In this document: positions 3,229 to 9,096 of the stretch, piece after piece | Numbering within the stretch: the stretch's first letter is position 1 | How the letters are laid out: every line of letters starts with the position of its first letter | Source of the DNA: Enterobacteria phage vB_EcoM_IME281 | Length of the DNA stretch: 64,000 nt | Sequence record: MH051913 | Direction: 5' to 3' (one strand) | Made by a program: the position numbers and the translations under genes | The notes under the pieces: model-generated | What the model was told of the DNA's origin: nothing | Database searches by the model: none | Seen by the model: the letters and a program-made list of their open reading frames with translations, nothing else

Positions 3229-4112
<884 letters not shown>

Positions 4113-6237: not shown

Positions 6238-6504
6238 ATGTTAGTATTAAAATTAGCTTTTTATGACCCAGAAACCAAGACAACAACTACTAAACGTTGT
6301 TCTATTTCATATGAATGCCAATTTGGCGAAGTTGAGACCGACGGCGAGCCCTTTATGGCAATTGCCGATAGCACATTCGCTAAACCAAAAATAATTCCAC
6401 TAGTTAATGCTGCGGCTTATCTGGTTGCTCCTGAAGAAATGACTTATCATACAATTCAGCACATGGCTAAAGATGATAATGCTCCTGCTGGATTTGTAAT
6501 TTAA
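6238..6504 (+). CDS. hypothetical protein (88 aa)
   Basis: ATG preceded by GAGGTG; track start 6232 is GTG. Confidence 0.45.
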   Translation: MLVLKLAFYDPETKTTTTKRCSISYECQFGEVETDGEPFMAIADSTFAKPKIIPLVNAAAYLVAPEEMTYHTIQHMAKDDNAPAGFVI

Positions 6505-6509
6505 ATTAA

Positions 6510-6583
6510 GGCCCTGTAGCTGGACGGTCAAGCGAGCGACTCATAATCGCTGGATGGTGGTTCGATTCCACCCAGGGCCACCA
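6510..6583 (+). tRNA. tRNA with CAT anticodon (Met or Ile2/lysidine)
   Basis: Hand-folded cloverleaf: acceptor GGCCCTG/CAGGGCC, anticodon stem AGCGA/TCGCT with loop CTCATAA, T-arm GGTGG-TTCGATT-CCACC, encoded CCA. Confidence 0.8.
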
Positions 6584-6587
6584 ATTT

Positions 6588-6662
6588 GGATGTGTAGCTC
6601 AGCGGTAGAGCAGTTGACTGTTAATCAATTGGTCCATGGTTCGAATCCATGCATGTCCGCCA
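6588..6662 (+). tRNA. tRNA-Asn (GTT anticodon)
   Basis: Hand-folded: D-stem GCTC/GAGC, anticodon loop CTGTTAA, T-arm CATGG-TTCGAAT-CCATG, acceptor with two G-U pairs, encoded CCA. Confidence 0.7.
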
Positions 6663-6666
6663 AATA

Positions 6667-6742
6667 CGAGGCATAGCTCAGAAGGAAGAGCAACGGTCTT
6701 CTAAACCGTAGGTCGTAGGTTCGATCCCTACTGTCTCGACCA
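6667..6742 (+). tRNA. tRNA-Arg (TCT anticodon)
   Basis: Hand-folded: D-stem GCTC/GAGC, anticodon stem ACGGT/ACCGT with loop CTTCTAA, T-loop TTCGATC, encoded CCA; T4 also encodes tRNA-Arg(UCU). Confidence 0.8.
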
Positions 6743-6945
6743 AACAAGAAACCGGGTCGCTACCGGTAAGTCGTCGGACTGAAGCTCCCTGAATAAGACC
6801 CGACTTTAAGGCGTACATGAGTTGACCTCTTAAAGTCCCTTATCTCACAGCTGAAACGGCGCACCGAACACTTGCCTAGCAGGTGGAACCCCGACAAGGT
6901 TACCCTAGGTGAAAGGCCCTTCCGAAAGGTTGGGCCTTTTTTTGT
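6743..6945 (+). ncRNA. candidate stable small RNA downstream of the tRNA cluster
   Basis: About 200 nt with no ORF, several local hairpins, ends in GAAA-loop terminator; T4 carries stable RNAs C and D at the equivalent position. Confidence 0.35.
6915..6943 (+). terminator. rho-independent terminator
   Basis: GGCCCTTCC-GAAA-GGTTGGGCC hairpin followed by a T7 run. Confidence 0.7.
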
Positions 6946-6952
6946 ATAAATA
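6945..6952 (+). promoter_or_regulatory. late promoter TATAAATA
   Basis: Exact T4 late promoter consensus 27 nt upstream of ATG 6979. Confidence 0.6.
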
Positions 6953-6978
6953 TACAGTAAACTAACTTAGGAAATAAT

Positions 6979-7533
6979 ATGAAACTTTTAAAATATTTGA
7001 GTTGGATTCTGTTGGTCCCACTAGATTTTATCTCTATGGTTCTAGCCGTTATCCTTGCGCCTTTTGTGGTTCCTTTTCATAATAAAAAGACTGGTAAATT
7101 GCCATACGGTTTTGATTGGATGATGACATACGATAATCCAATTGACGGCGATAAAGGTCATATTAAACGTTGGGCTAAAATCAGGAAAATGCCTGGTGGT
7201 GTTTATCTCCAGAGAGTAGCTTGGCTATGGCGAAATAAAGCTTATAACTTTGCTTATCATAAACTAGGCCGTGATTGTAGCTCGGAATTCCATTATCGTG
7301 GTAATCCTGACGTAGAATCAGGTTCTCCTGATAAAGCTCACCATGGTTGGTTGTGGATGTGGAATGATGACGCCTGGGGTGTATTTGCTTCAGTTCCTTA
7401 TCTTAAGGTCGGCGGAATCACATTTTACCTTCGCGTGTACTGTGGCTGGAAGCTTAAGAGTCTTTTGTCTCGTAAAATCCCTAAAGCTATGTTGGCCTTC
7501 CACGTGAACCCGTTCCGGTTCTACAAGAACTGA
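6979..7533 (+). CDS. Trp-rich protein with N-terminal transmembrane segment (184 aa), late-expressed
   Basis: Hydrophobic N-terminus; flanked on both sides by the same terminator/late-promoter module. Confidence 0.55.
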   Translation: MKLLKYLSWILLVPLDFISMVLAVILAPFVVPFHNKKTGKLPYGFDWMMTYDNPIDGDKGHIKRWAKIRKMPGGVYLQRVAWLWRNKAYNFAYHKLGRDCSSEFHYRGNPDVESGSPDKAHHGWLWMWNDDAWGVFASVPYLKVGGITFYLRVYCGWKLKSLLSRKIPKAMLAFHVNPFRFYKN

Positions 7534-7538
7534 TTTAC

Positions 7539-7565
7539 GGCCCTTCCGAAAGGTTGGGCCTTTTT
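7539..7565 (+). terminator. rho-independent terminator (copy of 6915-6943)
   Basis: Identical hairpin followed by T5 run. Confidence 0.7.
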
Positions 7566-7566
7566 G

Positions 7567-7574
7567 TATAAATA
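7567..7574 (+). promoter_or_regulatory. late promoter TATAAATA
   Basis: Exact consensus 29 nt upstream of ATG 7603. Confidence 0.6.
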
Positions 7575-7602
7575 GATAAGTTAATTAACACAGGAAACAA
7601 TA

Positions 7603-8220
7603 ATGAAAACTTACAATGAATTTTTGAACGAAAGCGTTCTGAATGAAGCCGGCGTGCGCATGACTAAAGATATGTGGCAAGCTGCTTATGATAAAATTTC
7701 CGGGACTAAAACCACTACCGAGTTCTTTAAAAACGTTTATGATATGTATGGTTTTGATACTAGTAGCCAGAAAGAATATTACAAAGCTTCCAAAGCTTTT
7801 AAAGATATCGTAGCCGGTGGCTCTACTAAGCCTGCTAAACCTGCTAAAGCTCCTGTTGCTAAACCTGCGGCTCAGCCCAAAGTTGCAGCACCGAAACCTA
7901 CACCTAAACCAGAACCTGTAAAAGAAGCTCCTAAATCTAAAATCAAGTTTGACACCAGCACTATAGTTAAAAAATATAACCAACTGGCTTCTTTAGTTTC
8001 TGAAATCGAATCTGAAACTAAACACCTTGTTCGTGAATTCAACGCTCTTCGTAACGGTCAACACATTAACAACCTGGATACCCCAGACCTGTATCGTCTC
8101 TATCTGACGGTTGAAGGCCTTAAGTATACCCAGCCTATGCGCGAAGAAATCAATAACAAACTTCGCCAAGCGGGCCGCATTGCTGGTGACGCAGCACAGT
8201 TCGAAAAGACTCGTAAATAA
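7603..8220 (+). CDS. internal-protein-like, CTS family, with Pro/Ala/Lys-rich linker (205 aa)
   Basis: MKTYNEFLNE|S N-terminus; PAKPAKAPVAKPAAQPKVAAPKPTPKPEP low-complexity linker; late promoter upstream. Confidence 0.6.
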   Translation: MKTYNEFLNESVLNEAGVRMTKDMWQAAYDKISGTKTTTEFFKNVYDMYGFDTSSQKEYYKASKAFKDIVAGGSTKPAKPAKAPVAKPAAQPKVAAPKPTPKPEPVKEAPKSKIKFDTSTIVKKYNQLASLVSEIESETKHLVREFNALRNGQHINNLDTPDLYRLYLTVEGLKYTQPMREEINNKLRQAGRIAGDAAQFEKTRK

Positions 8221-8225
8221 TGAAA

Positions 8226-8245
8226 GGAGACTTCGGTCTCCTTTT
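8226..8245 (+). terminator. rho-independent terminator
   Basis: GGAGAC-TTCG-GTCTCC hairpin plus T run. Confidence 0.65.
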
Positions 8246-8279: not shown

Positions 8280-8308
8280 GTTTACACCTCCTTTAAACAT
8301 GATACTAT
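8280..8308 (+). promoter_or_regulatory. early promoter/stem-loop cassette
   Basis: GTTTAC, 17 nt, TACTAT; core GATACTATAGACCTATCAAAACAACAGAGTGA. Confidence 0.6.
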
Positions 8309-8343
8309 AGACCTATCAAAACAACAGAGTGAAGGAGAGTAAA

Positions 8344-8607
8344 ATGGATAATTATGGTGAATTGTTTAATTTCTTTATGAAATGCGTTCCTGAAGAATTT
8401 GGTGCTACTGTTAACGATATTAAAGTTATCGGTCCTGAACACCCAGTGTATGAAACCTATGCAGTAATGGGTAATGAAGATGGACAGTGGTATACAATTA
8501 AAGTTGTGATTAGTATGTTCTCAGCTGAAGGCTACGCCAAATCGTCTACCAAAGTTTATCATGATAACGATTTTGATGCGGAAGAGTATTTCAATAATAT
8601 GAAATAA
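8344..8607 (+). CDS. hypothetical protein (87 aa)
   Basis: ATG after AAGGAGAG in cassette leader. Confidence 0.5.
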   Translation: MDNYGELFNFFMKCVPEEFGATVNDIKVIGPEHPVYETYAVMGNEDGQWYTIKVVISMFSAEGYAKSSTKVYHDNDFDAEEYFNNMK

Positions 8608-8609
8608 TT

Positions 8610-8639
8610 GTTTACATGGGCTCATGATTAAGATATTAT
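8610..8639 (+). promoter_or_regulatory. early promoter with hairpin
   Basis: GTTTAC then TATTAT; GGGCTCAT/ATGAGCCC inverted repeat around the -10. Confidence 0.5.
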
Positions 8640-8664
8640 GAGCCCATAATTTGAGGAGAACATA

Positions 8665-9063
8665 ATGAATATCGAAGATAAAGAAATGCAAGAGTTGTAT
8701 AATTCATTAACGCCTGAACAACAAAAAGCTGCCAAAGAATTAGAGAAAGCTCTTGCTTTCAACTTGGCAAAAACTGATTGGGCTGCCATGTATGAAGAAA
8801 AAACTAGATTAGAACTTGAAGCTGCTGAGAGAAATGAATGGATTGTCGAAACCAAGATTTCTGATGGTGGTTGCTCTGTTGAGGTGTCAGCTGTAGTTAA
8901 AGGCACTCATGGCGAAAAATCATGGGGTTGGCATAATGAAGCAAACAAACATATTGTTCTCTCAACGTCAAAAACTTATGGCCAAAGGGCTCCTGTATCC
9001 AAAGCTATTATTAAGCAAGCTCAATGGGAAGCCAATGAAATCTGCCTCGCAAAAATGAAATAA
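8665..9063 (+). CDS. hypothetical protein (132 aa)
   Basis: GAGGAG RBS; promoter cassette 8610-8639 upstream. Confidence 0.5.
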   Translation: MNIEDKEMQELYNSLTPEQQKAAKELEKALAFNLAKTDWAAMYEEKTRLELEAAERNEWIVETKISDGGCSVEVSAVVKGTHGEKSWGWHNEANKHIVLSTSKTYGQRAPVSKAIIKQAQWEANEICLAKMK

Positions 9064-9066
9064 AAT

Positions 9067-9096
9067 GTTTACATCCCTCAGAGGACAGGGTATAAT
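9067..9096 (+). promoter_or_regulatory. early promoter with hairpin
   Basis: GTTTAC, 18 nt, TATAAT; GAGGACA/TGTCCTC inverted repeat. Confidence 0.55.

Follow-up and report, generated by a model that had tools for sequence, protein, structure and literature searches.

Why does the same short sequence, a hairpin followed by a T-run and a promoter-like octamer, stand on both sides of one small gene in a virulent phage? The question is raised by a 64,000-nt stretch of the genome of Enterobacteria phage vB_EcoM_IME281 (record MH051913; this whole 64-kb stretch is called the window below), in which a 36-bp repeat made of the hairpin GGCCCTTCCGAAAGGTTGGGCC, a T-run and GTATAAATA occurs at 6915-6952 and at 7539-7574. 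An original prediction, made from the letters of the window, read the two copies as a duplicated terminator and late-promoter module around a moron-type insertion, i.e., a gene gained by recombination between modules. The module, the gene between its copies and the flanking sequences were compared with those of related phages. We consider it likely that the module, composed of a terminator hairpin, a U-run, a T4-type late promoter and a leader with ribosome-binding site, delimits single-gene cassettes in the variable interval from the tRNA/rnaD operon to gene e.8 and serves as a joint for recombination. The window phage is a virulent, T4-like phage of the JS98 type (Straboviridae, Tevenvirinae, genus Dhakavirus), with the local gene order 57B, trna.4, trna.3, trna.2, tRNAs, e.8, and e.6. 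Over the 1.9 kb around the module pair it shares 98.1% identity with phage UP19 and 97.7% with JS98.

The repeated module and the gene between its copies

The repeat was recovered as predicted: with up to 3 mismatches allowed, the window holds exactly two matching sites, and none of 100 dinucleotide-preserving shuffles contained a match. Both copies lie on the + strand, measure 38 nt (copy 1) and 36 nt (copy 2), and differ solely in the length of the T-run. Copy 1 (6915-6952) is built from the hairpin GGCCCTTCCGAAAGGTTGGGCC (6915-6936), T7 (6937-6943), a G (6944) and the octamer TATAAATA (6945-6952), and copy 2 (7539-7574) from an identical hairpin (7539-7560), T5 (7561-7565), a G (7566) and TATAAATA (7567-7574). 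Past this exact match, the leaders of the two copies are only loosely alike as far as the ATG. A simple terminator scan misses both hairpins because it demands a perfect stem and theirs is interrupted by a 2x2 U.U internal loop, and folding was used instead. Folded as RNA (-15.3 to -19.1 kcal/mol, z about -3.3), the sequence forms a G+C outer stem of 5-9 bp and, beyond the internal loop, two C-G pairs capped with a GAAA tetraloop, with U5-U7 directly after the hairpin, i.e., the stable G+C-rich stem-loop and U-run of an intrinsic (Rho-independent) terminator.

At both 6945-6952 and 7567-7574 the octamer TATAAATA stands at about -10 with no -35 element, the form of a T4-type late promoter. It ends 26 nt ahead of the ATG of the open reading frame (ORF) at 6979 and 28 nt ahead of that of the ORF at 7603. 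The first leader (6953-6978, + strand) contains the Shine-Dalgarno (SD)-like sequence GGAAA at 6970-6974 and the second (7575-7602, + strand) contains AGGAAA, as located by sequence and leader alignment. In both copies hairpin, U-run, TATAAATA, SD sequence and ATG are packed into 64 nt, and the same hairpin-TATAAATA-gene arrangement is kept upstream of cassettes in Mosigvirus and in T4 relatives.

Between the copies lies ORF 6979-7533 (+ strand), the cassette cargo, which encodes a 184-aa protein of family DUF7338. The match to Pfam PF24027 is full-length (residues 1-183, 212.6 bits versus a cut-off of 27, E = 4.6e-63), and that to phrog_2143 in PHROGs reaches E = 1.1e-79. The product had been described as Trp-rich and membrane-anchored, and indeed it contains 10 tryptophans and a hydrophobic segment at residues 9-33 that is helical in an AlphaFold model of high confidence (pLDDT 96). 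No relative was found among solved structures, the BFVD search returned uncharacterised phage homologs only, and no mention of the family was found in the literature searched. In an alignment of 32 sequences residues T50, D52, G57, W65, W82, W84, R85, and N86 are invariant, as are Y89, G97, R152, G156, W157, K158, and P178; H61 is nearly so. DUF7338 has members in 591 phage records that span many myovirus groups, where they map to unrelated positions; it is a widespread, conserved, confidently modelled and wholly uncharacterised family. The view that late promoters suit virion-associated proteins finds nothing in its favour here, the product having an N-terminal membrane anchor and no capsid targeting sequence (CTS); it agrees better with the CTS gene that starts at 7603, behind copy 2.

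Filled and empty sites among T-even phages

An alignment with related genomes for an empty site, the check suggested in the original prediction, was answered by phage dhaeg, in which the left flank of copy 1, one module and the right flank of copy 2 adjoin and are followed by the CTS gene. A 200-nt probe spanning this junction gave a single full-length match in dhaeg, dhabil, CLB_P2, IME08, SHP1, and C6. It was also found in one piece in ESCO10 and in vB_EcoM_005, where the single module precedes a different CTS gene, with DUF7338 further downstream, and in two pieces about 620 bp apart in JS98, EcWhh-1, and AnYang. The leader of 7575-7602 likewise occurs 3' of the single module in phages without DUF7338.

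Several configurations of the same interval were seen within Dhakavirus. The window and JS98 have the order hairpin, DUF7338, hairpin, CTS gene and e.8; dhaeg, IME08 and others have hairpin, CTS gene and e.8; QL01 has hairpin, DUF7338, hairpin and e.8; JS10 has hairpin, DUF7338, hairpin, an early promoter and orf133, without the CTS gene and e.8. In vB_EcoM_005 the hairpin with its late promoter is followed by the different CTS gene, another terminator, DUF7338, a hairpin and e.8, and IME341 is arranged in the same way with DUF7338 cut to its first 5 and last ~17 codons. This pseudogene (L067 1050-1125) reads MKLLK, a stop and the last ~17 codons, and its downstream hairpin is intact. After copy 2, TATAAATA is present only where a late cassette follows; JS10 and Mosigvirus have instead an early-type promoter, GTTTAC...TA(C/T)TAT or TATAGT. 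Judging by these alignments, the promoter appears to go with the downstream gene and not with the hairpin, which stays at the cassette border. Identities of the flanks are mosaic among the configurations, as expected of recombining populations, and give no direction. A different junction was noted in JS10 (L002 3690-3760, compared with window 8281-8670), where the start codon of orf133 is joined to the promoter and leader of e.8 at the SD sequence (GGAGAG/GGAGAA), which suggests recombination via very short regulatory homologies. Extra module copies in phage 04086 (OR842557.1, L094 2217-2500) adjoin an N run and a duplicated module/CTS-gene start, and were discarded as most likely an assembly artefact.

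The hairpin and its cassettes were also found at other places. In Mosigvirus LF82-5, rI is followed by a hairpin with TATAAATA, DUF7338, a second hairpin and an early promoter; the gene is enclosed by two hairpins of the variant AGCCCCTTCCGAAAGGTTGGGGCT, of which the upstream one has GTATAAATA and the downstream one the early promoter. Mosigvirus Av-05 has a single hairpin at the rI site within flanks identical to those of LF82-5 and represents the empty allele. Compared with the Dhakavirus hairpin, the variant AGCCCCTTCCGAAAGGTTGGGGCT shows a compensatory change from G-C to C-G that keeps the stem (Mosigvirus/T4 versions), and in Mosigvirus the same hairpin with a late promoter also follows the tRNA genes. 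The IMG/VR database was scanned with an 18-nt core of the hairpin and only matches with T-even flanks were used. In three T4 relatives obtained in this way (L025, L026, and L035), rnaC is followed by a hairpin with TATAAATA, a 155-aa CTS gene, a second hairpin and T4-like downstream sequence, the bracketing hairpins being of the T4 type; T4 itself has a single hairpin. Taken together there are three independent filled/empty pairs, with two different cargos sharing a site and one cargo occurring at two, and all of them break at the hairpin. Across the compared genomes, the tRNA-operon terminator is repeatedly a site of cassettes, in Dhakavirus, Gaprivervirus, and Tequatrovirus-like phages at least, and T4 holds the empty allele.

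The remaining IMG/VR core matches were either hairpins of a generic terminator-like type, whose outer stems differ, or likely chance matches inside coding sequence. In many unrelated environmental viral contigs, the 18-nt core CCCTTCCGAAAGGTTGGG, with its tandem U.U mismatch and GAAA loop, is found again within differing outer stems and together with a T-run, and a core variant, AAACCCCCTTCCGAAAGGTTGGGGGTTTTTT, was seen in about 10 freshwater contigs. Three further contigs (L022, L050, and L059) have a similar hairpin before a DUF7338-looking gene that starts with ATGAAACTTTTAA; no tblastn match was obtained, and they were dropped as coincidence.

Upstream of copy 1, the cluster of tRNA-Met, tRNA-Asn, and tRNA-Arg (6510-6742, + strand; ARAGORN and Rfam tRNA matches) forms the transcription unit that copy 1 would end. 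An alignment with the T4 segment of rnaD, rnaC and terminator places a homolog of the T4 stable RNA rnaD (species 2 RNA) at 6743-6866 (+ strand), directly after tRNA-Arg, and shows the T4 rnaC segment to be missing. Just 5' of the terminator follows a conserved 35-nt trailer, AACACTTGCCTAGCAGGTGGAACCCCGACAAGGTT (6867-6901, + strand), which is nearly invariant across T4, Dhakavirus, and Gaprivervirus and also stands 5' of the hairpin at many T-even loci. Neither the rnaD homolog nor the trailer is annotated in the JS98 record. In T4, the orthologous hairpin, AGCCCCGACCGAAAGGTTGGGGCT+T5, comes after rnaC with the same trailer ahead of it. Because this hairpin and trailer occupy the same place in T4, the copy 1 hairpin would be the resident terminator of the tRNA/rnaD (stable-RNA) operon. 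The T4 and window terminators are alike in position, trailer and hairpin design (AGCCCCGACCGAAAGGTTGGGGCT+T5 versus (A)GGCCCTTCCGAAAGGTTGGGCC(T)+T7), whereas the T4 stem is fully paired (GA opposite TT) and neither TATAAATA nor a cassette follows it. An Rfam search of window positions 6300-7700 (E-value mode) returned the three tRNAs and sub-threshold chance matches, with no family covering the hairpin or the trailer; a BjrC68 match at 6862-6947 (22.8 bits versus a gathering score of 39) was rejected as one of the latter.

Downstream of copy 2 lies the second cargo, ORF 7603-8220 (+ strand), a 205-aa internal-protein-like ORF (phrog_2280 in PHROGs) with the N-terminus MKTYNEFLNESVLNEA. It begins with MKTYNEFLNES, compared with MKTYQEFIAEA in T4 IPII/IPIII; gp21 cleaves after L/I-x-E, and L-x-E motifs are present as LNE at residues 8-10 and 13-15. 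ORF 7603 thereby has the conserved N-terminal CTS of about 10-11 residues expected of T-even internal proteins (CTS concept in PMC3012670, PMC12373910). By this motif its product resembles an injected internal protein, for which it is a candidate. CTS-like starts of the form MKTY(Q/N/S)EF(I/L) occur in six + strand ORFs of the window (3903, 4191, 4417, 7603, 16513, and 17429), which makes at least six candidate injected proteins in this phage. The ORFs at 3903, 4191, and 4417 are grouped at the ipI position, and those near 16.5-17.4 kb (16513 and 17429) are probably at the ipII/ipIII position. The CTS cassette ends with a separate UUCG-loop hairpin, AAAGGAGACTTCGGTCTCCTTT, and a T-run (8223-8244 or 8223-8245, + strand; terminator scan), and 3' of this hairpin comes an early-type promoter for e.8 (8281-8308, + strand). 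The genes e.8, orf133, and e.6 each have their own T4 early-type promoter, GTTTACA-N-TA(C/T/A)(T/A)AT (8281-8308, 8611-8639, and 9068-9096), of which the one at 8611-8639 overlaps the inverted repeat GGGCTCATGA...TCATGAGCCC. Immediately 3' of the module pair, these elements look like classical promoter-early stem-loop (PeSL)-like elements, which are considered in the last section.

Proposed recombination at the module and competing explanations

In the mechanism that we favour, copy 1 would end the tRNA/rnaD transcript and restart late transcription into the DUF7338 gene, and copy 2 would end the DUF7338 transcript and restart late transcription into the internal-protein-like gene, each cassette gene forming its own insulated late unit. 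The 30-36 bp common to the copies would be used by phage homologous recombination, in one genome or between co-infecting relatives. Recombination between direct copies would remove the cassette and leave one chimeric module; the reverse reaction would insert a cassette at any resident hairpin, through a crossover with a donor phage or the integration of a small excised circle of the sort demonstrated for PeSL elements. Copy 1 would be the ancestral terminator and copy 2 would have arrived with a cassette, the mobile unit consisting of late promoter, leader, ORF and hairpin. The polymorphism itself is seen directly in the genomes, and from it we infer deletion, insertion and exchange of cassettes by recombination at the module. 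The idea of a moron-type insertion made in the original prediction is supported by the empty site and by the second locus in Mosigvirus, and holds less firmly for the Dhakavirus event, for which insertion and deletion are not separable.

A number of points weigh against this account. For the Dhakavirus polymorphism insertion and deletion give the same products. The octamer TATAAATA by itself is not rare, with 7 occurrences on the + strand of the window versus about 5 expected from composition, so the promoter call is drawn from its position and its conservation in relatives. The same holds for function: the terminator and late-promoter (gp55-dependent) activities of the module are deduced from sequence, and the late promoters proposed for both genes stand as far as distance to the ATGs and conserved arrangement go, with late expression as a deduction from them. 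The 18-nt core CCC(T/G)(T/A)CCGAAAGGTTGGG with a T-run is found in many unrelated viral contigs and is not diagnostic when taken alone. A homology of 30-36 bp is short for efficient T4 recombination, and the exchange may depend on rare events or on some helper activity. Lastly, an upstream homing-endonuclease gene in some relatives, about 380 bp away, could drive regional exchange without any role for the module.

Three alternatives were considered. If DUF7338 and both hairpins were ancestral, with the second hairpin derived from local duplication or terminator selection, losses of the dhaeg type could explain the alleles with no insertion via the module. A deletion between direct repeats yields exactly the single chimeric module of dhaeg, DUF7338 is present at the same site in Gaprivervirus DK-13 (92% amino-acid identity), and the internally deleted remnant in IME341 documents that loss does happen. 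However, DUF7338 is bracketed by the same hairpin at rI in Mosigvirus, where Av-05 provides an empty single-hairpin allele, an unrelated CTS gene is bracketed alike at the tRNA terminator of T4 relatives, with T4 empty, and DUF7338 is scattered over several unrelated positions across myovirus genera. Because Mosigvirus has the same gene family at another locus between two hairpins, together with an empty allele, gain at a hairpin is supported, and the second locus, the second cargo and the scattered positions imply that at least some states need such gains; we therefore judge a history of deletions only to be improbable.

Breakpoints that fall exactly on the module at two loci count against exchange driven by homing endonucleases, in which Seg-type enzymes of the tRNA region would cut co-infecting DNA and repair would co-convert the cassettes, the module being merely a shared regulatory sequence. 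Co-conversion tracts are not expected to stop repeatedly inside the same 30-36 bp, the rI site of Mosigvirus has no annotated endonuclease nearby, and no such gene is present here in the window, JS98, JS10, or dhaeg. In AnYang, IME540, and LHE83, on the other hand, a homing-endonuclease gene does lie within the matched region (in AnYang 666 nt, L095 523-1188, ending at the distance from DUF7338 given above), T4 has segB (666 nt) in the same tRNA region, and homing endonucleases were named as a parallel route of exchange by Comeau et al. (2014, PMC4122927). As a full explanation this is very unlikely in our opinion, and co-conversion as a contributor to the exchange is plausible. A hairpin that amounts to no more than a strong terminator preferred for its design (GAAA tetraloop, G+C stem), placed by selection after several genes independently, would agree with the many unrelated viral contigs that have the 18-nt core and T-run and with the promoter-less copy that serves the convergent genes uvsW.1 and uvsY.2 in JS98. 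Such convergence is hardly credible given an identity that spans all 22 nt, including the unpaired U.U, and goes on through G+TATAAATA, only three copies in the 170 kb of JS98, and presence/absence alleles whose breakpoints coincide exactly with the repeat at each of three sites.

The related possibility of a common stand-alone terminator spread through the genome with no insertion polymorphism, which the original prediction had named as the finding that would speak against it, was dismissed. The rest of the JS98 genome was scanned together with the window, with up to 5 substitutions allowed, and beyond the module pair (nothing else in the window matches with 3 mismatches allowed) it holds one further copy, i.e., three per genome of ~170 kb, and empty alleles exist. 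This third exact 22-nt hairpin, at about 113.5 kb in JS98 (L004 37545-37566, - strand), lies between uvsW.1 (orf181) and uvsY.2 and lacks a late promoter. It probably terminates transcription from both sides and could offer another docking site. A bolder version of recombination at the module would make the hairpin an active, structure-specific recombination site, in which, for example, a cruciform or stem-loop is cut by a phage nuclease such as endonuclease VII or a Seg/Mob enzyme and late cassettes, possibly packaged as mini-circles, dock in an integron-like manner at any resident hairpin across Tequatrovirus, Dhakavirus, Gaprivervirus, and Mosigvirus, with the tRNA-operon terminator as a third, unrecognised internal-protein/accessory locus of T-even phages. 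We offer this version as speculation and hold it to be rather unlikely.

If single accessory genes are added, dropped and reordered at one module of 30-36 bp, the locus would be a sequence-resolved example of this process in T-even phages, with the tRNA-operon terminator as a docking point for internal-protein-like genes and DUF7338. JS98-type phages are therapy candidates, and the module flags genes in which isolates differ that are nearly identical elsewhere. Since internal proteins are known to counteract restriction (PMC12373910), cassette content may affect host range.

Relation to known mobile cassettes and shuffled loci

The closest counterparts are the promoter-early and promoter-middle stem-loops (PeSL and PmSL) of T4-type phages (Arbiol, Comeau, Kutateladze, Adamia & Krisch 2010, PMC2839356; Comeau, Arbiol & Krisch 2014, PMC4122927). 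Recombination between flanking elements leaves one chimeric element there, mini-circles were detected by inverse PCR, and the authors relate the elements to shuffling at internal-protein (IP) loci and note T4 deletions that end at GGGC/GCCC inverted repeats (PMC2839356, PMC4122927). The phrase 'late promoter' is absent from Arbiol et al. 2010 (PMC2839356). As in the window, a terminator stem-loop stands directly 5' of a promoter, leader and SD sequence in intergenic space, copies bracket small non-essential ORFs in hyperplastic regions, and relatives differ by a cassette with a chimeric element at the empty site, here dhaeg, IME08, and CLB_P2 versus JS98 and the window, Av-05 versus LF82-5, and T4 versus L025/L026. 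The downstream hairpin and early-type promoter of JS10 and Mosigvirus are the PeSL arrangement itself. The window copies, in contrast, carry the late TATAAATA without a -35 element and not a sigma-70-like early or a MotA middle promoter; the early type (sigma-70-like or TTTACW-N17-TAYWAT) is found only in the relatives JS10, LF82-5, and Av-05. The stem-loop of the window copies is one specific sequence derived from the tRNA-operon terminator, with three copies per genome, whereas the PeSL is a loose motif with dozens of copies.

At the T-even IP loci, repeated promoter-bearing sequences reportedly flank the internal-protein genes, as Repoila, Tetart, Bouet and Krisch are said to have described in 1994 (EMBO J 13:4181). 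The small, late-packaged IP genes there have a conserved N-terminal leader and are variable in number, order and identity, and a shared short flanking regulatory sequence has been proposed for their shuffling; ORF 7603 and the cassettes of the T4 relatives are of this type. The window site, however, extends from the tRNA/rnaD terminator to e.8 and is neither ipI (57B-trna.4) nor ipII/ipIII (e-denV), and its DUF7338 cargo is not an internal protein. According to Arbiol et al. (PMC2839356), the IP-associated elements have T4 early promoters and weak A+T-rich stem-loops, whereas the window module joins a G+C-rich hairpin to a late promoter.

As one gene equipped with a promoter and a terminator of its own, and missing from the same interval in a related phage, the window cassette also resembles a moron. 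Lambdoid morons, as described by Hendrix and colleagues, are single genes with their own promoter and terminator between genes that are adjacent in a relative, and they are classically temperate and typically expressed from the prophage. The window phage is virulent and its promoter is of the late lytic class, in contrast to this temperate, prophage-expressed setting.

The kind of mechanism is thus already known, and the module is the equivalent, with a late promoter, of the PeSL/PmSL mobile regulatory cassettes and of IP-locus shuffling. Specific to this locus are the late promoter class, the origin of the stem-loop in a tRNA-operon terminator and DUF7338 as mobile cargo, by which the idea of a stem-loop and promoter cassette is widened from early and middle to late promoters.

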